A stretch of 45,635 nt of DNA from a virus (lineage: Duplodnaviria > Heunggongvirae > Uroviricota > Caudoviricetes): IMG/VR virus record IMGVR_UViG_2671180631_000012; one strand, given 5' to 3'. The stretch's first letter is position 1; each line of letters starts with the position of its first letter. The notes under the pieces are model-generated. The model saw nothing but the letters and a program-made list of their open reading frames with translations. It was not told where the DNA came from and made no database searches. The position numbers and the translations under genes are program-made. Shown here one piece after another: positions 7,515 to 29,095 of the stretch.

Positions 7515-10500
7515 TTAACATTCCCCCATCACGTCGCATATTTAACAGATTGCCCTGCACCCGCTGATCAACCATCCCCATAAGTGCTTTTATTGCCTGA
7601 GGGCCAATCTCTCCATTCTGGCCGTCATTTTGAATAGTGATTTGGTATACAGGGGCATAGGTAATATCTCCGCCTCCATTACCACTTTTACTATTAATAG
7701 CTCTGACACCAAGAGAACCATCGGAAGTTCGTGTTAATGGCATAATGGCTTCCGGTCCAGCCTCACCAAAAACACCAGCCCCTTTTGCAAAAGCAAAAAA
7801 TTGCGGGGAATCATAAATACCGTTCGAATACGTGCTCAATGACGGAGACTCATAAACACCGCCCTTTGCATTCGGAATAAATTTACTAATAGCACTCCCG
7901 ATAGTTCCTAAAATCCCCCCAGAAGAACTGTTACTAATGCTGTCGAAAATCCCAGTAATTGAAGCCTTTAATGCTATTCGACTAAGATCCGAAATCACGG
8001 AAGTAGCGAAAGAACGAAAATTTGCCTTGCCTGTCGTGACAAAATCACCCAGCGCATCGGTCATCCCATCAAACATCTGAGTCGTGGTTGATTTTATCTG
8101 CTCACTGATATCCTTAGTGTCATCCAGCCAGTTATTGAATCCCTGGGAGGCACCACTAACCCAGTCTCCTGCCTGAATATCGAGCTGCTCGTTTTTCTGT
8201 CTGACAATTTCTTTTTCCCGTTCCAGAGCATCATTCAGAGCCTGCATTTTCTCTTGAAAAACATGATCTGACATTCCACGGGATTTATCTGCATAGTCAC
8301 GTTCAAGTTGCAGACGCTGATTGTTATATCCATGTTCAATCCGCAGTAATTCCTGCTGGCGTTGCTGATTTTTATCGCCAACCCCATAACCAGCAATCTG
8401 AATATCATACCCCTGCTGACGATTATCAATCGAAGCCTGCAATGAATCACGCCATGCTGTTATTTCGGCGGATTCCTTGATTAGCCTGTTATTTTTTTCA
8501 ATCGCAACATTTTTCTCCATCAACGTGGTTATTTCTTCCCGGTGTAAGAGAAGCGATTTCTGATCCTGGGTTAATTTCGATGATGGTCGTGACTCTAGGT
8601 CGGCAATCCGCTGACGCCACTTAACCAGTTCCTGTTCAGAGGAACTTAATTTAACGGTCAACTCAGCTTGTGAACTTAGTAACGCATTCTGTTGATTCAG
8701 ATGATCAATCATTCGTTGGGCTGCATCATCAGAATAACCTTTCGCCTTTGGTTGCTTTGGATCTTTATAACGCTCATTTATTTGAGCGATAAGATTATTA
8801 TATTCTTCCTTTGAATACTGATTCTTTAGCTTTTCCAGTTTTGCAAGTTCACTAGCTCTCTGCTGCTCCCGGGTCTGATATTGTTTTGAAAAGGCATCTG
8901 CTCTCTGTCTGAGTTCAATTCCTTCCTGTTGTCGCTTGTTGTAATCGTTTATTGATGAATTTAGTACGTCCTGAGCAATTTTTTCTGCTTGAAGTACGCC
9001 CAATTGCTGCTTTAATCGTGCCAGCCTTTTATTTTGAGCTCCGCCATCTCCAATGCCACCTAACCCGAAAACTCCGGGTCGGGTATTTTTTTCTATTTCA
9101 TCAATTTGACGGAGAACATCTGAGATTTTTTGATCAAGGGAGGCCTCACGGCCAATATCCAGCATGGAATCCCATGCCCATTTTGCGGAGTCTGCGACAG
9201 CTTTCCATGCAGTCTCAAGATAACCAAGATTTTCTTTAATCTGGTTGGTGCGCTGGATCATTGAGGATGAGTATTCTTCTGTCGCAATGCGGGCGGCCTC
9301 CTGCTGGTTCCCTTCATCCTGTAGCGCCTTAATCTGGTTATAAGTCGCAAGTGTCAGAAAATGGTACTGATCATTAAGTTTTGATATGGCACTGACAGGA
9401 TCCTTTGCAATTTCATTGAAGTCATTAACCAGTTGTTCGGTTGATATTCCTGTTACTTCGCTCGTTTTTACTATCGCTGTCGTCACTTGCTCCAGCGAAC
9501 TGCTCGCTACCTTTCCCGAACGCACAAGCTGATTTAATACTGCCGCCGCAGCACCAGTTGTCGAATCAGCCGCATTCCCGGCACGTTGAGCTATATCGCC
9601 CAATTGCCCGCTGGTTGTCCCCAACTGATTTCCGGTAAGAATAAGAGATTTATTAAATTCGTCCTGCTCCTGAGAGCCTTTATAGTAAGCCAGTCCTAAG
9701 ACCCCAACGGCTGCTGCGGCCAGGGTAAAAGGATTAATTAATCCCAGCACATAAGAACCTACACCTTTGATCGCCGGGCCAATCCCACCGAACATATCTT
9801 TTAGCTGGCCGCCCTGCTGCATTAACACCATAAATGGCGACTGACCAGTGGACAACCCAACAACAATATCCGTCATTTGTACAGGCAACATGCGCATAGC
9901 AAAAGCCGTTTGTTTTGCCGACATTCCGGTTTTGCTTAATTGTGATTGAGTAACCTCAAGCTCACTCCGCATAGCACGAAGTTTTCCAGAAAGCTCCTCA
10001 TACATTTCAGGAGAAAGCATCCCCTTAGCTTTTGCTTCATTGAGCTGTTTCTGTTGTTCTACCAGACGATTAAAAGCAGTTCCGACAGGATCAAGTTGAG
10101 CAATCAGACGTTGCAAAGCAACAACCTGTTCATCATGCGCTTTTGCTGCTTCTCGCTCTGCCTGAGCCTCTCCGGTAAGCTCTCGCCGTGTTTCCTGTAT
10201 TTTTCGGCTATAATTCTCAAACTGAGAACCATTTATTTTCCCGGATGCAAACGCAGCATTAAGTTCATCATGCTGTTGTTCAAGATTTCTTAGCGCCGCA
10301 GCCAGAGGGTCGATCTTGTCCAGCATTCTTTGAAAGGCCTGAGCCTGCGCTTCCTGCTGGGCGGCAGCAAGTTTTCCGGCCTTCTCGGCTTCTCTCTGCG
10401 CTTGCGCAACCCCGCTCAATTCCTCTGTGGTTTCATTAAGTTTACGGACAAGAAATTCATATTCTTCTTTATCAATAAGCCCTTTATCGAAAAATTTCTT

Positions 10501-10740
10501 TAATTCAGAATAGCGTCGACCGACAGTATCAATTGCGGCACCAACTGGATCAATAGCTGCTTTTAATTTTGCGAGCGCGTTCTTCTCATCTTCTGTTGCC
10601 TTAGTCACTTTCCCTGCGCTATTTGCAGCAGTTTCCCCAGCCTGCGTCATTTTGACTAATGAGGAGGTCAGATTGTCAGCATTATTTTTCGCTCCAGTGC
10701 TATCAATAATTATTGCGAGACGCGAGGTTTGCTCTGCCAT
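7507..10740 (-). CDS. Tail tape measure protein
   Basis: 1077-aa ORF with a coiled-coil-rich, internally repetitive N-terminus (repeated DPVG/DPLA...RL...Q segments), a hydrophobic central segment and a Gly-rich C-terminus; located between the G/GT chaperone and M. SD AGGAG 9 nt upstream of the ATG. Confidence 0.85.
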
Positions 10741-20406: not shown

Positions 20407-21472
20407 TCCTTACTCTGGCATCAACCACATTAATATTGATCGCCACAGGCTGGGGATGTTCATTATCTTCCACCGTTTCGATCTCTTTGCGCAGCTTCTG
20501 GTTTTCCATTCTGCGCCGTTCAATTTCCAGTTCCCGTAGCCGCTTATCTGCACATAAAGCCCCGCCAGCAGAAAACAAACGCAACAATTCACGCCGGGCG
20601 GCAGCCTTATCCTCCAGCAGGATCTCAACGCCGAATTTTCCGAATTTTGCCCCTGCATATAATTGCCGCGCATCCCCATCAAGCAGAGTGGTATCAGCCA
20701 TATAAAGCTGTCCCGTTCCCTCACCGCAGCACTTCGGGCAGTCCGGATTGGGTATGGCGTTATCAACAAAGCCGAGGCCTCCATATTCCGGTTCGGGTTT
20801 GCCATCTCTGGAAGCCTGCGCCGCTGCCTTGTCGAATTCTGCTATATCGCGCCACTGGTAGAGATGATTCTCGCCCCAGCAATAACGGCAGTTAACACGG
20901 CGAAATTGTGCAAGCTGATTGGGGTCGGCCAGGACAATAGCCATCAACTGACTCACTAGTAAATCCAGGTCTGCGGTATAGCGTTTCTGGTACTGATTGC
21001 GGAAGTAGCTGATAGCGCGAAAAACCCTGGCATTTCTAAGCATACGACTGGCGTTGCTGTTAGCTGTCGCACCTTGCCCCTCATAACCGGCTAGTCGGTA
21101 CGCCTCTGTCGGCTTTTTACCCTGAGCAACAAGCATCGCAAACTTAGCCTGCTGGTCAGAAATGCCGAATTCATCGGGACAGAACGAAAATTCCTCCGCG
21201 TCGCCCTCATTCAGGCCCGCATCGAATACTGGCTTTTTTTCCTGAGATTTTTCGTTCCGCTTTTGTGCAGTCTGCGCAGATTTTTTCTGCGCACTTTTTT
21301 GCGCAGTTTTGCACATTTCTGTCTGCGCATTTTTCGGAGTTTTTTTGATGTAACGACGGGCTGTTGCGTAATTCAGTCCCCTTGCTTCACACCATGCCAC
21401 CGGAGATATACCGGAGCGGGTGTATTCAGCAATATACTCCTGCTGCAACGCCCCCCAGTCCGGTCTGCTCAT
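20378..21472 (-). CDS. Terminase small subunit
   Basis: 364-aa ORF with an N-terminal HTH-like region and basic/acidic C-terminus; immediately upstream of the large terminase. Confidence 0.65.
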   Translation of the reverse strand: MSRPDWGALQQEYIAEYTRSGISPVAWCEARGLNYATARRYIKKTPKNAQTEMCKTAQKSAQKKSAQTAQKRNEKSQEKKPVFDAGLNEGDAEEFSFCPDEFGISDQQAKFAMLVAQGKKPTEAYRLAGYEGQGATANSNASRMLRNARVFRAISYFRNQYQKRYTADLDLLVSQLMAIVLADPNQLAQFRRVNCRYCWGENHLYQWRDIAEFDKAAAQASRDGKPEPEYGGLGFVDNAIPNPDCPKCCGEGTGQLYMADTTLLDGDARQLYAGAKFGKFGVEILLEDKAAARRELLRLFSAGGALCADKRLRELEIERRRMENQKLRKEIETVEDNEHPQPVAININVVDARVRSDEDDLSDA

Positions 21473-21475
21473 CAG

Positions 21476-21685
21476 TTAGTCCTGATTTTTATCCACCCTG
21501 AGTAGTTCGCGCAGAGCAAAGGCATCCCCTTTTCTGGCAAGCTTAAACAATGCCGCTCGTAACTCGGCTTCACCTTTCGCTCTGCCCTTACGGATGGCCG
21601 CATAAAAATCTGTCATTGCTTCCCGATTTTCTTTCAGTCGGTTCAGATCAACATCCAGAACGTCAGCGATTTGTTGTGCAGTCAT
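21476..21685 (-). CDS. Small hypothetical phage protein
   Basis: ORF 21476-21727; start moved to the internal Met (MTAQQIADVLDV...) to avoid overlap with the upstream gene. Confidence 0.4.
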   Translation of the reverse strand: MTAQQIADVLDVDLNRLKENREAMTDFYAAIRKGRAKGEAELRAALFKLARKGDAFALRELLRVDKNQD

Positions 21686-22613
21686 CCGGCACGCTGCCAG
21701 AGACTCGACTTTCGAATACGGAATCATTTGTCACCCCCATTGATATGCAGGGTGTCTTCTTCCTGTATTTTTCGTGAAGGATTTTTACTGCAGCGTTGTT
21801 CCAGGTGACCTGATGGTGAATGCGTTTATGACTGGCACCCATAAGTGAGATTTTTACGCACGACGGCGCATACATGACGGAGTAAAAACTTTTAACGTAG
21901 GTTCCGGAATCCAGATACAGCTCGGTCATTCCGCCGCTGTTTTTCTGCGTCTGTTTCTGCCCTAACTGGACAGCACCGATCGTCATAAACAATTCACCAC
22001 AGCGACCGAGATTCGTGTACGTATTCACATCCTCGTTAATGCGCCCCATGAATGAGAACGGTCGATCAACCGAACAGATAAAGCTGTTCATTGCCTTGCG
22101 TTTCACCCACGAAGCATGGCCGCCATTGTCACCAAGAAAATCCCCGCCCTGCGACATAGCGATGGAAAGAGCAGGTATTGATTCGTAGTACGCAAGCATT
22201 TCAGAAAGGATCTCATCCAGTTTCCTTATCGGGAAATAGGCCTGGTCATAGTTGCGATCCACCCGAAACTGGAACTCGTGATAATCATCATCGAGCTGAA
22301 TGAAGTATTTACACCCGACCAGTTTTGCCTGGTCGAAACAGGCATTACGGGCGTAAAAAATTGAGCGGCGGTCACTAAAATTATCGGCTTCGTCAAAACG
22401 ACTAGCAATATCGGCTTTGGAAAATACCAGCACCTGTTCACCAAATTCAGCCATGTACTGATGCCGTGTCTTATCTTCATCATCAACAACGATAAAAATT
22501 TTCCCGGTATAGCCAGCACGACGCAACGTCCGGTAAGTCAGAACTTTGTCCGGTCGCCCGTGAGTCAGAATAAAGGCGCAAAAATCATCACGCATATTCC
22601 TCCTCCCCGCCAT
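21663..22613 (-). CDS. Uncharacterised protein with possible GT-A glycosyltransferase-like motifs
   Basis: 316 aa; N-terminus FILTHGRPDKVL...IFIVVDDED resembles the GT-A Rossmann start; a later IQLDDDY resembles a DxD motif. Overlaps the ParB-like gene by 26 nt. Confidence 0.4.
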   Translation of the reverse strand: MAGRRNMRDDFCAFILTHGRPDKVLTYRTLRRAGYTGKIFIVVDDEDKTRHQYMAEFGEQVLVFSKADIASRFDEADNFSDRRSIFYARNACFDQAKLVGCKYFIQLDDDYHEFQFRVDRNYDQAYFPIRKLDEILSEMLAYYESIPALSIAMSQGGDFLGDNGGHASWVKRKAMNSFICSVDRPFSFMGRINEDVNTYTNLGRCGELFMTIGAVQLGQKQTQKNSGGMTELYLDSGTYVKSFYSVMYAPSCVKISLMGASHKRIHHQVTWNNAAVKILHEKYRKKTPCISMGVTNDSVFESRVSGSVPDDCTTNR

Positions 22614-23376
22614 GCATGATCTCCACCATGCGCTGCGTCATTCGGACAAATCCATTTTCAATAGCCTGCTGATAATCAATGATCACCAGCGCCGACTCCT
22701 CGAAAAGGCACTGAATTTCAGCGGGGGCATGAGCGTAATAGTCCGCAATTCTGCTGAAATTAAACACCGTGTGACGTTCTGCTGCACACAGGAGGAATTT
22801 CTCAATATCAGGATCAAGGGACGCCGAACGTATCCGGCTGATCAGCTCCTGAGTTTTCGTATCGTCGTACAGTTCACTGATATCCGGTTTACCGCCTGAC
22901 GGCTCATAAACAGGCGTATCAATTTTCGTCGTATACGGCTCCTCCTCATTTCCTGTACCGGGCAAAACATCCGTCAACAGTTCATCAATTTCTGCCGGGA
23001 TGAAGCCTGTCAGGGAGACATCAAAATCAGCATTGATTAGGTCCGACAGCTCCATCCGCAACAGATCTTCATCCCAGCCAGCATTCATCGGCAGGCGATT
23101 ATCTGCCAGGCGGTACGCCTTTTTCTGCTCATCCGTCAGGCCAGACAGAACAATGACCGGAACAGAATCCATTTTGAGCATTTCAGCCGCCATAACACGA
23201 CCGTGACCCGCAATAATTTCGCCCTTTTCGTCAATCAGCACCGGATTAGTCCAGCCGAATTGCTTAATACTTTCTACCAGTTGTGCCACCTGCTCAGTAC
23301 TGTGCGTCCTGGCGTTGTGCGCATACGGTGACAATTCTTGTAATGGGCGATAGACTATCTTTAATTTCTCGCTCAT
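22588..23376 (-). CDS. ParB-like nuclease domain protein
   Basis: 262 aa; N-terminal ParB/Srx-like signature (KIVYRPLQELSPYAHNARTH...NPVLIDEKGEIIAGHGRVMAA). Confidence 0.7.
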   Translation of the reverse strand: MSEKLKIVYRPLQELSPYAHNARTHSTEQVAQLVESIKQFGWTNPVLIDEKGEIIAGHGRVMAAEMLKMDSVPVIVLSGLTDEQKKAYRLADNRLPMNAGWDEDLLRMELSDLINADFDVSLTGFIPAEIDELLTDVLPGTGNEEEPYTTKIDTPVYEPSGGKPDISELYDDTKTQELISRIRSASLDPDIEKFLLCAAERHTVFNFSRIADYYAHAPAEIQCLFEESALVIIDYQQAIENGFVRMTQRMVEIMHGGEEEYA

Positions 23377-23513: not shown

Positions 23514-24971
23514 TTAGGAGCGCCAAAAAAAACCTGAAAACAATATAATAACAGGATAAATTTCAAGGCGACCAAGAATCATAGCTATGCACATTAAATA
23601 TTTTGCAATGTCATTAAGCACTCCGAATGACGATGCAGTAGCCCCAAAACCTAATCCCATATTATTAATACATGCAGCCACTGTTGCAAATGATGTAAGA
23701 AAATCATATCCCATACCATTTAACACCAGTATAAAAAACACCGTGAAGAGAGTATAAAGAAAAAAGAAACTCCATACAGACCTCATTACACGATCTGTAA
23801 CTATCTTCCCTCCTACATTTACACTCAACAACGCTCTGGGATGAGAAAGCTGATTTATCTCGTGTTTGCTTTGTTTGAAAAGTATAAGAAATCGAAGTGA
23901 CTTAATTCCACCACAGGTTGAACCTATACATCCCCCAAAGAAACTTGACAACAGCAAAAACACTATCGTGTGCGTGGGCCAGTTTGCATAATCCTGCGTA
24001 GCTAAACCATTATCAGTGAGCATGGAGCTGGCAAGAAAAAACGAATGAATAAAACTTCCATGCAAGTCATACATACCTATATGCCAGACCTGGAAAGAGG
24101 TAACAATGATCACCCCTAAGGCTATTAACAGAAAGAAACGAAGTTCAATATCTCTGATTAAAGGTTTTATCGTTTTTCTGCTAATAACAATATACCAAAG
24201 AGTGAAGTTGAAAGCCGATAGCAGGGAAAAAGAACCAGCCACCAGCTCAACCAAATAGTTATTAAAATATCCGATACTCTCGCTATGAGTTGAGAAACCA
24301 CCAAGCGAAACTGTGGAAATCCCGTGACAAATAGCATCAAACAAAGGCATTCCTGCAAGTCTATAACAGACAATACAAGCAATACCTAATAAAGAATAAG
24401 TTATCCACAGTGTCCGTGACGTATCGGCCAGGCGGGGAGTGAGTTTGTCATCCTTAAATGGCCCCGGCATTTCTGACTGATAAAGCTTTGCACCACCAAT
24501 ACCCAATAATGGCAATACTGCAACCGCCAGAACAATAACTCCTAAACCACCTATAAAATTTAACTGTGACCGATAGTACAAATATGCCCGAGGTAATGAA
24601 CTAACATCATCAATTACAGTTGCTCCTGTTGTTGTTATTCCAGAAACCCCTTCAAACAGAGCATCAATGAACGTTAAATTAAGTTCTGAGTCAATCCATA
24701 AAGGGAATGCACTAATAACAGAAAACAAAATCCAAAACATTACAATTATAATAAACCCATCACGGGTACGTAATTGAATGCCAGATTTCTTAGTTGTATA
24801 CCACGCTCCGCCACCAATGCAAAAAAATATAACGAAAGTTATAAAGAAAACGAACAGGCTTTTTTCTTTATAAAACAATGCTACAACCATTGGTGGCAAC
24901 ATTGAAAGACTATAGAGCCAAACCAGGAACCCACACATATGAGTAACAACTCTTACATGAGATGTATTCAT
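23514..24971 (-). CDS. trkG: Trk-system potassium uptake protein TrkG (TrkH family)
   Basis: Polytopic membrane ORF; from the internal start MNTSHVRVVTHMCGFLVWLYS it is 485 aa, matching the recalled Rac-prophage trkG; AT-rich codon usage. Confidence 0.85.
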   Translation of the reverse strand: MNTSHVRVVTHMCGFLVWLYSLSMLPPMVVALFYKEKSLFVFFITFVIFFCIGGGAWYTTKKSGIQLRTRDGFIIIVMFWILFSVISAFPLWIDSELNLTFIDALFEGVSGITTTGATVIDDVSSLPRAYLYYRSQLNFIGGLGVIVLAVAVLPLLGIGGAKLYQSEMPGPFKDDKLTPRLADTSRTLWITYSLLGIACIVCYRLAGMPLFDAICHGISTVSLGGFSTHSESIGYFNNYLVELVAGSFSLLSAFNFTLWYIVISRKTIKPLIRDIELRFFLLIALGVIIVTSFQVWHIGMYDLHGSFIHSFFLASSMLTDNGLATQDYANWPTHTIVFLLLSSFFGGCIGSTCGGIKSLRFLILFKQSKHEINQLSHPRALLSVNVGGKIVTDRVMRSVWSFFFLYTLFTVFFILVLNGMGYDFLTSFATVAACINNMGLGFGATASSFGVLNDIAKYLMCIAMILGRLEIYPVIILFSGFFWRS

Positions 24972-25108
24972 ATCTAAATATTCTTTCAATTATAACCACC
25001 TTGCTGCAATATTATGATTATACTGTATAAAATTTAACTCCTCTTAGATCTTACTTCACTGTTCCTTATGAAACAATCATCAAAATGAATCATATTGTAG
25101 TTAAGATT

Positions 25109-25585: not shown

Positions 25586-26067
25586 AAACAGATTTCACGC
25601 TCAATCTCACGACGAGTCATGAGACCTTTCCATTGCTTACCGCCAGCATATGTCCAGCGACGTAGCTGATCACATGCGCCTTTGATATCGCCCTGGTTTA
25701 TTTTGCGAAGAAGCGTCGATGTTCTGAAATTGCCAGCACCCACGTTGTAAACGAATGAGTAAAGAGCGCCGCGCGTTGTTTCCGGTATATCGACTTTGAT
25801 GTACGGGTTAATTTGTCTGGCGACAGTGGCAAGGTCTTTATTCAAGAGTGTTTTGCATTCTGCTTTGGTATACGTTTTACCGAGCATGATGTCTTTTCCT
25901 GTATGCCCGTGACATACAGTCCATACACCAACAATATCTTTGTATGGTATGTAGCTGACACCTTCCAGACCATCGTTACCACTTGGGCCAGTGATTAACA
26001 CTGATGCTATAGCAATTGCTCCGCCACCAATAGCAGCAGCAACGACTTTTCGTAATGATGGAGGCAT
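25570..26067 (-). CDS. SAR endolysin (T4-lysozyme-like)
   Basis: 165 aa; N-terminal Gly/Ala-rich weakly hydrophobic SAR segment ([18 protein letters not shown]); E...D/C...T catalytic-triad spacing (GLEGVSY...CHGHT). Confidence 0.8.
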
Positions 26068-26282
26068 TATTCACCTCTCGCAGCCTTGCGCTTATCTTCT
26101 TTAATCTTGAAATAAAGGTTTGTCAGGTACGTCAGCAGGCCAAATACCAGACTACCCAGCACACCGATTGCAGCCCACTGTGACGGAGTTACTCTATCGA
26201 GCAACTGTAAAAACCAGTAGCCAGCACTGCCTGCGGAGGTGCCGTAGGCAATGCCTGTTGAAATTTTGTCCATGGATTTCAT
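26067..26282 (-). CDS. Class II holin, phage-21 S-type pinholin with dual start (MKSM)
   Basis: From the internal start the product is [71 protein letters not shown] (71 aa), matching recalled S21; stop overlaps the endolysin start. Confidence 0.8.
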
Positions 26283-26381
26283 AGCCTCACCTCCGCACGG
26301 AACGGATGGCATAGTTATTATGTGTAGGCTTTCAGACACATCAATCAGAGCCTTAATTGATATATATGCTGGAGACGATGC

Positions 26382-26407
26382 AATATAAAAAGCTCGCCGT
26401 AGCGAGC
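26382..26407 (-). terminator. Intrinsic terminator downstream of the first TolA-like lipoprotein gene
   Basis: Stem AGCTCGC/GCGAGCT with 4-nt loop, followed on the minus strand by TTTTATATT. Confidence 0.55.
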
Positions 26408-26533
26408 TAATAAAATGTATTTCTCTGATATTATGTTTATTTGTATTAGCTCAGACTTGACATCACAGGTTTCGTATATAGAACATCATCAAATCTGTCA
26501 GTTTGCTATGAATGAGATATAGTAATTGAAGAG

Positions 26534-26929
26534 CTAACCTCGCATGTCAAAGCCAGATTTCTGAAAATCTCTGTAGACTTCCGGATTGTTGAAGGCCGGA
26601 AATTTGGCTTTATGAGCTGCGGACTTTATCGCTTCGCAATAGGCTTTATCACCGTTACTGGTAGATATTTTTAACGCCGTGCCATCCTGAGAGAATTCCA
26701 TATGCAACCTGCATTTTTTCCCTTTCCAGTTATGCGGCTCATCAAGTTTGGCATTAATTGCAGCTCTGATTCCCCGCGCTTGCGCCCCCCATTCATCCTG
26801 ATCATCCCAGCGTCCTGAACTGCAACTACCTGTAGCAGTAGTTTTGTGGCAATCTGAAGGGTGTAAAGGTGTGCATCCCGCAACAAAACCGACCCAAAAA
26901 GTCAACATAACGATTTTCTTTAATCCCAC
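26534..26929 (-). CDS. Lipoprotein with TolA C-terminal domain (domain III)-like region, paralog 1
   Basis: 131 aa; signal peptide with lipobox VAGC; C-terminal region shares the K.C.L......G.L......GD...C.A...A.....P....PEVY..F pattern with recalled E. coli TolA domain III; GTG start with GAGGAG SD. Confidence 0.6.
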   Translation of the reverse strand: MGLKKIVMLTFWVGFVAGCTPLHPSDCHKTTATGSCSSGRWDDQDEWGAQARGIRAAINAKLDEPHNWKGKKCRLHMEFSQDGTALKISTSNGDKAYCEAIKSAAHKAKFPAFNNPEVYRDFQKSGFDMRG

Positions 26930-27079
26930 TTCTTGCTCCTCAATCCATTAAAATCTCAGCAATAGTAGTTGTTACGTCCGCCACTGGCTCAGAGCTGACT
27001 ATCCGCTAAATTTAGCTCAGTGCCGTAGCTGTGTCAGAACAAACCTAAGCCGAAACCGTTTATTACAAAACAATAAATA

Positions 27080-27508
27080 TCAGGGTTTAAAATCCAGCAC
27101 CCCATTTTGAAATACTTTATATACTTCCGGCGAAGGGGGGGCAGGTATATCAGCATTCTTTATCGCATTCATCGCTTCACGACATAAATCGAGGTCTCCA
27201 CTTTCTCTTTTAACCTCCAGTAGAAGGCCATTCGGGGCCATATGCATTCTCAGTGTACACTCTTTTCCTGAATACTTACTCGCATCCCCGAACTGTTTTT
27301 CGATGGCGCTCTTGATTTGATGGGCATACAGACGGATATCCTCACTAACATCAGAAGTACGTTCAGATGAACTCACATACTGTGTCTCTATTGCTTTATC
27401 GGAGTAATATGATGTACGGTCATGATAATTTGTCGATACAGCATCAGTGCACCCGATAATAATCCCACTAATAATCAACGTAAGAATTGATGCGCTACGA
27501 AAACCCAT
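27080..27508 (-). CDS. Lipoprotein with TolA C-terminal domain (domain III)-like region, paralog 2
   Basis: 142 aa; lipobox IIGC; C-terminus YAHQIKSAIEKQFGDASKYSGKECTLRMHMAPNGLLLEVKRESGDLDLCREAMNAIKNADIPAPPSPEVYKVFQNGVLDFKP aligns closely with the recalled TolA C-terminus (YAGQIKSAIESKFYDASSYAGKTCTLRIKLAPDGMLLDIKPEGGDPALCQAALAAAKLAKIPKPPSQAVYEVFKNAPLDFKP). Confidence 0.7.
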   Translation of the reverse strand: MGFRSASILTLIISGIIIGCTDAVSTNYHDRTSYYSDKAIETQYVSSSERTSDVSEDIRLYAHQIKSAIEKQFGDASKYSGKECTLRMHMAPNGLLLEVKRESGDLDLCREAMNAIKNADIPAPPSPEVYKVFQNGVLDFKP

Positions 27509-27537
27509 TTTTCCTCACATATGTCATATAGTAAAGG

Positions 27538-27567
27538 ATTATATATACCGTTGTTTTGGACGCTCAA
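27538..27567 (-). promoter_or_regulatory. Candidate sigma-70 promoter for TolA-like lipoprotein paralog 2
   Basis: Minus strand TTGAGC, about 18 bp, TATAAT, roughly 35 nt upstream of the GAGG SD and ATG. Confidence 0.5.
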
Positions 27568-28097
27568 ACAGCGAATCAGATCAAATAAAACGCACATTTG
27601 TTAACATTTACACAAAGTCTGCGTGGGATATTCTGAAAGAATATCCATAATGTGGAGAGAATCTATTGAAGTGCATGGTGCCGGGTGCCTCCCGGTGAAC
27701 AAAATGTTCGTGATACCTGTCGGCGACAGAAAAGGTTAATGGTATCACCCCACCGCACAGGGGGATTCACCATGCAGGAGTTTTCTTAGCAAACTCACTG
27801 CGCGCCCGGCAACTCCCAACCACATAAAATGCGGAGTTTGTGGCATTTATGCATATAACTCGCAGGAATTATCTTAAAAAACTGATGTCGATCCGGATTA
27901 AAAAGAAGCAGGTCATCATCAGATGACTGGAAAAAAGGAAAACAAAAAATACTCATCATACAGTTTTGATTGCAGGGATGAGCCTGCTATGCACAATATG
28001 CAGAATATAAGCAAGATAAAAATATGCAGGCATATTATTTCGGATCTTGTTATTAACACAACCTTTTTAATAATCATTTGGCATACAATAAACCAGC

Positions 28098-28552: not shown

Positions 28553-29095
28553 TCAAGCCATTTTCTCAGCAAATGATTCACGCATGGGAATATATAGGGC
28601 ATACTCAGCAACAGCTAACCAATTAGCAATCCGTTTTTCGCATGTGCTAAAACACCACTCTGGGTGTGCATCATTTAGCAATTCAGCCATTTTGCGCTTA
28701 GTCATCCCCCGCCCTTCATAGCGTTGCCGGAGAATGCAAATCAATCCTGGATGCTCTGCCAGCACCTCACTTATGACTCGATCAATACATAACGCCTCTG
28801 CATCAGTACAATGCGCCAGCCAGCTCTTTTGCTTGCCGTTGATCATCTCTCGCAAAAACGCTTCCAGCTCAGCTTTCTCTATTCCCGCTTTTTTCATTCT
28901 GCGCAGGGCTTCATTAATGGCTGTTTTCGTCAGTTTTTTGGATGCCAACAACTGATTGAACATATTCCCTGACCTGCCACCGCCAATATACGACCAGCGC
29001 CCCCACATACGTAGTTTTCCCTGAATCCAGACACTTTCCAGCGTGGTGAGGCGAAGGTGTTCTCCGCTTTTTCCTGTATTCGTTGGGTAAATCAT
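28553..29095 (-). CDS. Late-gene antiterminator Q-like protein
   Basis: 180-aa ORF immediately upstream of the lysis cassette leader and downstream of nin-like genes; C-terminal region has a sigma-region-4-like HTH pattern. Assignment mainly positional. Confidence 0.55.
   Translation of the reverse strand: MIYPTNTGKSGEHLRLTTLESVWIQGKLRMWGRWSYIGGGRSGNMFNQLLASKKLTKTAINEALRRMKKAGIEKAELEAFLREMINGKQKSWLAHCTDAEALCIDRVISEVLAEHPGLICILRQRYEGRGMTKRKMAELLNDAHPEWCFSTCEKRIANWLAVAEYALYIPMRESFAEKMA

Follow-up and report, generated by a model that had tools for sequence, protein, structure and literature searches.

Domain III of the Escherichia coli TolA protein (TolAIII) is a hub with distinct binding edges. 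TolB binds its strand beta3 by beta-augmentation, the g3p-N1 of Ff and IF1 phages and colicin N occupy the TolB site plus alpha2, and colicin A uses the opposite edge (L375-P380, with K368, K379 and K396) (PMC4339652, PMC3365938, PMC7391070). Proline at TolA D418 and K420, which removes backbone amide hydrogen-bond donors, abolishes the binding of colicin N, g3p-N1 and TolB (PMC4339652). The affinity of TolAIII for TolB is 40-200 µM (PMC7391070), while g3p-N1 and colicin N bind at ~1 µM (PMC4339652) and colicin A at 1.3 µM (PMC3365938). E. coli producing a signal-sequence-TolAIII protein (the construct of Wan and Baneyx, 1998) releases periplasmic protein (PMC6195910), and periplasmic g3p-N1 that sequesters TolA confers resistance to colicin A and a 4-log fall in phage uptake (PMC10424213). 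Here we describe two neighbouring genes, designated geneA and geneB, which lie in a prophage sequence of 45,635 nucleotides (IMG/VR record IMGVR_UViG_2671180631_000012; this whole stretch is hereafter called the window) and encode short proteins ending in a TolAIII. The presence of lipoproteins carrying TolA domain III in the slot where Shiga toxin (Stx) phages carry stx, namely between the late antiterminator gene Q and the holin gene S, is fully supported by the analysis that follows.

Two short lipoproteins with a TolA C-terminal domain

Both open reading frames (ORFs) lie on the minus strand, with geneA upstream of geneB, and are composed as follows:

27080-27508, minus strand: geneA, with signal peptide and lipobox IIGC at residues 1-20, a linker of ~30-35 residues and TolAIII at residues ~49-142 (nt 27083-27364)
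27513-27518, minus strand: Shine-Dalgarno sequence of geneA, GTGAGG (GAGG at 27513-27516), followed by AAAA and the ATG, as read from the sequence
26534-26929, minus strand: geneB, with signal peptide and lipobox VAGC at residues 1-19, a linker and TolAIII at residues ~44-131 (nt 26537-26800)
26936-26941, minus strand: Shine-Dalgarno sequence of geneB, GAGGAG, 6 nt before the GTG, as read from the sequence

The geneA product ('IIGC' protein, 142 aa, ATG start) runs MGFRSASILTLIISGIIIGC up to the lipobox and continues with TD, and ends in VLDFKP; the geneB product ('VAGC' protein, 131 aa) runs, after its GTG start codon, GLKKIVMLTFWVGFVAGC up to the lipobox and continues with TP. The GTG start is supported by the plasmid homologues, which have an ATG at the same codon. 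Each N-terminus presents a positive charge, a hydrophobic stretch and a lipobox (I-I-G-C in geneA, V-A-G-C in geneB) matching the pattern [LVI][ASTVI][GAS]C, whose Cys is invariant in 17 family members, in agreement with the original prediction of two signal-peptide/lipobox proteins at these positions. The residue at +2 is Thr, not Asp, in both proteins. According to the established +2 rule, lipoproteins with a residue other than Asp at this position are exported by the Lol system to the outer membrane, and because of the Thr at +2 outer-membrane sorting is thus predicted for both geneA and geneB.

Only ~25-35 residues separate the lipobox from the domain in either protein. The linker of geneA is poorly conserved. 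On the contrary, the linker of the geneB family, PLHPS-x-CHKTTATGSCSSGRWDDQDEWG (residues ~20-43; window 26800-26870), with two extra Cys, hardly varies between the E. coli prophage and Serratia and contains a conserved Cys-x9-Cys motif (PLHPSDCHKTTATGSCSSGRWDDQDEWG) that is absent from TolA. Despite this conservation it is predicted to be disordered by AlphaFold2 (AF2), and it may form a disulfide loop or provide another epitope for binding.

The Pfam family PF06519 was matched by both products above its gathering score of 25 bits (geneA, E 2.4e-23, 82.6 bits; geneB, E 1.3e-14, 54.6 bits), and phmmer aligned geneA with the TolA chains of the PDB over TolA 334-421 without any gap (E ~5e-28, 59% identity). 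The C-terminal likeness to TolA domain III that had been proposed from the sequence, very close in the case of geneA, is therefore far above chance level once the alignment is run. The fold prediction suggested as a further check succeeded for one of the two proteins. With an alignment of 17 sequences as input, AF2 gave a geneB model that reached a predicted local distance difference test (pLDDT) score of ~90 over residues 46-131, with the N-terminal 39 residues disordered, and that was superimposed by Foldseek on E. coli TolAIII (3QDP) with a root-mean-square deviation of 1.1 Å over 86 columns (TM 0.92), the next matches being the TolA chains in the IF1 and M13 g3p complexes. For geneA, AF2 run on the single sequence gave a model of unusable quality (pLDDT 56), and the fold of this protein rests on its 59% identity to solved TolA. 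A search of viral folds in BFVD gave no significant neighbour.

Both Cys of the TolA disulfide pair (C363/C388) are invariant in the alignments of the two families. In geneA, 11 of the 16 positions of alpha2 and 7 of the 10 of beta3 are identical to TolA, as are the last five residues, LDFKP, D418 and K420 included. TonB_2 was matched weakly by geneA (E 5.6e-5) and not at all by geneB, and a TonB-box decoy was rejected on this ground; apart from TolA and TonB_2, the one family match was PHROG 5772, of unknown function. The NCBIfam models of full-length TolA were matched exclusively at their C-terminal end (model positions 265-387). For PRK09510 the scores, 107.8 bits for geneA and 53.7 bits for geneB, were under the cut-off of 213. 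Against TIGR02794 geneA scored 75.6, above the cut-off of 59.45, through the C-terminal domain alone, thus accounting for misleading 'TolA' names in databases. The domain assignment of both genes is secure.

Selection, gene integrity and spread

Within the geneA family, the ratio of nonsynonymous to synonymous substitution rates (dN/dS) is 0.09-0.34 for the TolAIII domain, while signal peptide and tether reach 0.4-0.8; in the geneB family it is 0.06-0.15 overall, and the E. coli prophage, the plasmids, Enterobacter and Serratia share the same last 37 residues. On these ratios both families are under purifying selection, and its combination in geneA of constraint on the domain with relaxation on the tether is the pattern expected of a tethered binding module.

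The public annotation suggests otherwise. In E. coli HS30-1 (NZ_CP029492.1), RefSeq/PGAP labels geneA as a pseudogene, 'tolA, incomplete, missing N-terminus' (positions 20681-20941 of the inspected stretch, corresponding to window 27080-27340), and shortens geneB to an internal ATG, with loss of the KK n-region. Both calls are annotation errors, hiding an intact lipoprotein pair that is present in 773 complete genomes. The label would imply a non-functional relic, that is, a piece of the host's tolA picked up through illegitimate recombination, and we regard this as extremely improbable, since geneA is an intact ORF with Shine-Dalgarno sequence, signal peptide and lipobox. Moreover, its nucleotide identity to K-12 tolA is 59% and the synonymous sites are saturated (dS ~2.5), frame and lipobox are both preserved in its alleles with 66% and 91% amino-acid identity, with the low dN/dS of the domain reported above, and the cassette formed by the full pair is found at >=99% identity in 773 of the 5426 complete E. 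coli genomes (~14%), 1340 of which have some match. A recent host tolA fragment was thus rejected on the saturated dS and on the integrity and selection data.

The two genes are 29% identical and differently distributed. The geneA type was found in Escherichia and Shigella only, at 65-100% identity. Other E. coli prophages hold its alleles at 91% and 66% identity in this slot, alone and with no geneB beside them, and carry either a DUF1133 Q, as here, or a PF03589-type Q; between the solitary gene and the holin come SASA/nanS-p-like, DUF1378 and DUF826 genes. The original prediction had taken the two genes for paralogues; recent paralogues they are not, and a tandem duplication was rejected in view of the low identity, the separate distributions and the occurrence of geneA alone. 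Rather, two separately mobile lineages are joined in this window. In the prophage with the 66% allele (E. coli GCA_032682565.1, 5001-8743 of the inspected stretch), a PF03589-type Q, a TfpB-like gene and an AraC-type regulator come first, then the allele itself and, directly downstream of it, the gene for a nanS-p-like SASA esterase. The nanS-p-like SASA, DUF1378 and DUF826 genes are those that follow stx in Stx phages, and the place of this allele is the one that stx has there.

The geneB type comprises 368 clusters and extends to Citrobacter, Enterobacter, Serratia, Klebsiella and Raoultella. It is carried by ~600 plasmids, including pO157, where it lies beside toxB in a remnant of the F leading region, near hok and psiAB, and the conjugative IncK2/Z plasmids, where it directly follows the relaxase gene. 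Solitary copies are also found on chromosomes, where their locus differs from genus to genus (Enterobacter, Serratia, Citrobacter, Klebsiella). In Serratia marcescens (8001-10736 of the inspected stretch) the gene was observed between nrdDG and a GmrSD_N and HEPN pair, at the edge of a defence-island-like spot.

A third lineage, represented by a 144-aa lipoprotein-TolAIII (LLITAC followed by S; lipobox ITAC), was found on ~310 plasmids, mainly of Klebsiella and Enterobacter. On the one such plasmid inspected, the conjugative IncFIB/IncFII plasmid pMR0617ctx of K. pneumoniae (NZ_CP024040.1; 4217-5246 of the inspected stretch), the gene directly follows one for a thioredoxin-fold (DsbC/G-like) protein with a signal peptide, which may be a dedicated helper for the TolAIII disulfide. 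A profile search among 1.84 billion representatives retrieved 229 clusters at E <= 1e-10; among the best 150 of these, 95 are of 175 aa or less, and ~60 of the 95 start with a signal peptide and lipobox. Dozens of short lipoprotein-TolAIII lineages thus exist beyond the three described here, and their source names are only 'TolA C-terminal domain-containing protein' or 'colicin import membrane protein'. An association with bacteriocin operons was rejected, since inspection of six chromosomal or plasmid contexts revealed none.

The Q-to-S slot of a Rac-type prophage

The window corresponds to an essentially complete Rac-type lambdoid prophage of E. coli, with the RalA small RNA (sRNA), trkG, a recE-size ORF and an integrase-size ORF; no tRNA was found in it, and identical cassettes in other strains adjoin ttcA. 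In minus-strand order, the features surrounding geneA and geneB are:

28553-29095, minus strand: Q-like late antiterminator gene, upstream boundary of the slot (DUF1133 and a marginal Phage_antitermQ match)
28182-28153, minus strand: candidate late promoter pR' (AAGACA-18-TATAAT), a consensus match downstream of the Q-like gene
28125-28106, minus strand: tR'-like hairpin, a consensus match downstream of the Q-like gene
27619-27805, minus strand: STnc100-family prophage sRNA element (Rfam RF02076; 86.6 bits, the gathering score being 47)
27538-27567, minus strand: sigma-70-like promoter candidate for geneA (TTGAGC-18-TATAAT, consensus match 10/12), with the -10 ending 30 nt before the ATG
27009-27037, minus strand: weaker promoter-like site (CTGACA-17-TAAATT, 9/12, consensus match only) in the 150-bp spacer between geneA and geneB
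26381-26408, minus strand: intrinsic terminator between geneB and the holin gene, AGCUCGC-UACG-GCGAGCU followed by the U-run UUUUUAUAUU (-13 kcal/mol, z -2.3 against shuffles)
26067-26339, minus strand: P21-type holin gene S, downstream boundary of the slot (Pfam PF04971)

Lysozyme and Rz/Rz1 genes lie further downstream of the holin, so that the Q-to-S location originally assigned to the two genes is right. The position of the candidate pR' and tR' fits the layout of a lambdoid late operon. Taken together, the cassette appears to have the classical layout of a moron, with a convincing terminator hairpin and a promoter that is a consensus match only. The STnc100 element lies in the ~1-kb non-coding stretch from the Q-like gene to geneA, and the copy in the window is without a U-run after its 3' hairpin. 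A 2026 preprint (10.64898/2026.05.13.724894) describes STnc100 as an sRNA of prophages, akin to PasD and frequent close to the late regions of Stx phages.

In the INPHARED phage collection, mEp460_ev081 was the sole carrier of the cassette. The DNA that it shares with the window (26066-27796) covers the holin, the terminator, geneB, geneA and the edge of the STnc100 element, which thus marks the upstream limit of the shared module; mEp460_ev081 sets this module between a different Q and a different lysozyme. Both genes were also found on ~125 IMG/VR contigs, with several flank classes that are the same as those seen in the mEp460_ev081 comparison. Holin and cassette therefore travel as one mosaic module. 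Presence/absence polymorphism, as expected of a moron, was evident from these module edges and from the prophage with the same Q that has geneA without geneB.

Elsewhere in the window, trkG (23514-24989, minus strand), a host-type K+ transporter gene, has the lysis cassette on one side and the ParB/TAGT and terminase genes on the other. It is the known Rac cargo, here in a prophage that looks intact, unlike the remnant in K-12. A TAGT (TET-associated glycosyltransferase) gene (21663-22613, minus strand; PF20691, E 4e-34), named 'hypothetical' in RefSeq, overlaps a gene for a ynaK-like ParB_N protein (22588-23376, minus strand), the pair sitting between trkG and the terminase genes. The overlapping genes may form a phage DNA-modification or anti-restriction pair.

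Candidate functions and relation to known systems

Given what is observed in the cassette, namely the domain identity, the fold, the lipobox, the conserved binding strand and disulfide, the selection, the mobility and the distribution, we give about an even chance to the reading that geneA and geneB are outer-membrane-anchored, motor-less TolAIII decoys directed against group A colicins and filamentous-phage g3p, the best supported of the readings weighed here. The function put forward in the original prediction, a decoy conferring colicin tolerance or Ff exclusion or else a disturbance of Tol-Pal, would be consistent with all of these observations. The proteins would be exported by Sec, lipidated at the lipobox Cys and sorted by Lol to the outer membrane's inner leaflet, each domain being held on a disordered tether of ~25-35 residues. 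This is the site where the TolA-binding epitopes of the translocation domains of group A colicins and g3p-N1 would first reach the periplasm. The decoy would capture these epitopes by beta-strand augmentation and, being uncoupled from TolQ-TolR, would hold them in a dead-end complex, thus blocking entry. Because TolA-TolB binding is weak (40-200 µM) and the parasites bind at ~1 µM, a modest amount of decoy could titrate the invaders away at little cost to Tol-Pal. Transcription of the cassette in the lysogen would start at its own promoter and end at its own terminator, moron-like, and during lytic growth the Q-modified polymerase would read through it.

A partner gene is not needed, since the geneA type is solitary in prophages and the geneB type on plasmids and chromosomes. 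The same logic would apply where a relative stands as a single gene on a conjugative plasmid, the pili of such plasmids attracting filamentous phages that depend on TolA; indeed, solitary relatives on pilus-making conjugative plasmids fit a protection from pilus-specific, TolA-requiring filamentous phages. In the work of Levengood-Freyermuth et al. in 1993 and of Click and Webster in 1997, periplasmic TolAIII reportedly rendered wild-type cells tolerant to colicins, leaky and hard to infect with f1. No functional study of the present proteins was found in the literature searched, the one trace being a table entry that reads 'TolA protein, hypothetical protein, 1,355 bp, prophage' (PMC6854850).

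Several points weigh against a decoy. We infer, for both proteins, the localisation, the expression in the lysogen, the binding partners and the phenotype that this reading requires. Promoter-like sites number 11 in the region against 7.3 +/- 2.9 in shuffles, with no enrichment; the sigma-70-like promoter of its own that the original prediction gave to geneA is thus plausible from its 10/12 match, while the density of such sites does not set it apart. No PADLOC defence model matched geneA or geneB. The chromosomal surroundings of many geneB-type genes are unremarkable, as would also suit a housekeeping role in the envelope, and a cost is expected, overproduced TolAIII being harmful to cells, which become leaky. 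As for the ligand sites, the colicin A box of geneA is identical to TolA at 3 of 6 positions, with K368 replaced by His, and an enrichment of TolA identity at the g3p/TolB site of geneA was rejected (18/26 against 34/62 elsewhere, not significant). In geneB the side chains of these sites have diverged (4/16 identical in alpha2, 2/10 in beta3 and 2/6 in the colicin A box), and judging from these residues its ligand may be something else. Since beta-augmentation consists largely of backbone contacts, the divergence of geneB does not by itself appear to exclude binding.

Two other functions have to be weighed against the decoy. In one, which we consider distinctly unlikely, a TolAIII produced in large amounts from the late operon would bind the TolB N-terminus, block the mobilisation of Pal and weaken the outer membrane (blebbing, leakiness), thus aiding spanin lysis and virion release or boosting vesicles. 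The location agrees with such a role, in that the Q-dependent late transcript contains the cassette just before the holin and the two move as one module, as does the retention of the TolB-binding beta3 strand in geneA. Exported TolAIII makes cells leak periplasmic contents (PMC6195910), and tolA mutants hypervesiculate (PMC7973035). The same families, however, are found on plasmids and chromosomes with no lysis genes nearby, and for this reason a lysis accessory as the sole role was rejected; the promoter-like site and the terminator before the holin suggest expression uncoupled from lysis, Rz/Rz1 spanins are already present in the lysis cassette, and TolB-TolAIII binding is weak.

In the other, the TolAIII fold would serve as a generic outer-membrane module for beta-augmentation, recruited to a different ligand as an envelope or host factor that alters permeability, stress tolerance, serum resistance or colonisation, like the lambda fitness morons Bor and Lom. 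It is most plausible for geneB, whose family is strongly conserved, including the Cys-x9-Cys linker absent from TolA, whose sites for the known ligands have diverged from TolA, and whose members are solitary on the chromosomes of several genera and adjacent to toxB on pO157; the pairing of the Klebsiella plasmid lineage with a thioredoxin-fold gene points the same way. For the two proteins as a whole it is an unlikely explanation: no candidate ligand emerged, geneA closely mimics the binding surface of E. coli TolA, which points to the partners of TolA itself, and the bias towards mobile elements suits functions in conflict better than housekeeping ones.

Extending the decoy reading from this cassette to its relatives, short lipoprotein-TolAIII proteins would be a widespread unrecognised class of mobile co-receptor decoys, i.e., dominant-negative copies of the hub needed by all group A colicins and by TolA-dependent filamentous phages, a generalisation that we hold possible rather than probable. 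If it were true, one small gene would provide broad colicin tolerance, independent of immunity proteins, together with resistance to filamentous phages, and prophages would offer both to their lysogens, the association of geneA with geneB widening the spectrum of ligands. Conjugative plasmids (IncK2/Z, Klebsiella F-like, the ancestors of pO157) would in this way cancel the phage liability of their own pili. The ~14% of complete E. coli genomes that have the full pair, and the approximately one quarter that have at least one copy when plasmids and pO157 are included, would, should the decoy reading hold, carry unrecognised determinants of colicin tolerance and filamentous-phage resistance, behind the RefSeq pseudogene label of geneA and the 'TolA' names of its relatives, which hide the family. 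This would bear on colicin ecology in the gut, on the design of colicin and phage antimicrobials, on the use of pilus-specific phages against resistance plasmids and on the choice of hosts for phage display. It would be the first natural defence by periplasmic co-receptor mimicry, as well as a natural tool for probing Tol-Pal.

Compared with bona fide TolA, geneA and geneB share with domain III (TolA 334-421; PDB 3QDP, 1TOL, 2X9A, 1S62) the family, the fold and the disulfide, and geneA also the C-terminal beta3 strand that is used by TolB, g3p-N1 and colicin N. They differ from it in the N-terminal TolQ-TolR transmembrane anchor, which is replaced by a cleavable lipoprotein signal peptide, in the absence of the long domain II (~260 residues in E. 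coli), with total lengths of 142 and 131 aa and a short tether, and in their location as mobile-element genes in a prophage late region, outside the ybgC-tolQRAB-pal-cpoB operon (the K-12 operon was used for comparison). Having neither the TolQ-TolR anchor nor domain II, they cannot transduce force. They would also be topologically inverted with respect to TolA, with a predicted anchor in the outer rather than the inner membrane. The engineered periplasmic TolAIII of the Webster and Baneyx laboratories is likewise exported and motor-less, and leakage was reported for it (PMC6195910). It is artificial, soluble and overproduced, whereas geneA and geneB are natural, diverged, under selection, predicted to be lipid-anchored and spread by phages and plasmids.

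As cargo, the cassette recalls the morons of lambdoid phages (stx in the Q-S interval; bor and lom elsewhere in lambda), in that it is placed between Q/pR' and the holin and is present or absent among related phages; what it carries is an envelope lipoprotein, not a toxin. Cor (phi80/N15/HK022), Llp (T5), TraT (F) and Ltp (TP-J34) are also small lipoproteins of mobile elements, often morons, and they protect their carrier at the envelope from incoming phage or DNA. The analogy is functional only, these proteins being unrelated to geneA and geneB in sequence and fold, with no link through Pfam, PHROG or PADLOC. Cor, Llp and probably TraT bind and mask an outer-membrane protein, and Ltp blocks DNA injection in a Gram-positive host, whereas the proposal made here is mimicry of a periplasmic co-receptor, a kind of decoy that, to our knowledge, has been described for none of the four. 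The nearest parallel in mechanism is the g3p immunity of Ff-infected cells, in which the same g3p-TolA step is blocked with cross-tolerance to colicins (PMC10424213). There a ligand titrates the receptor and produces tol phenotypes; the proposed decoy would be its mirror image, a copy of the receptor that titrates the ligands and spares the real TolA.

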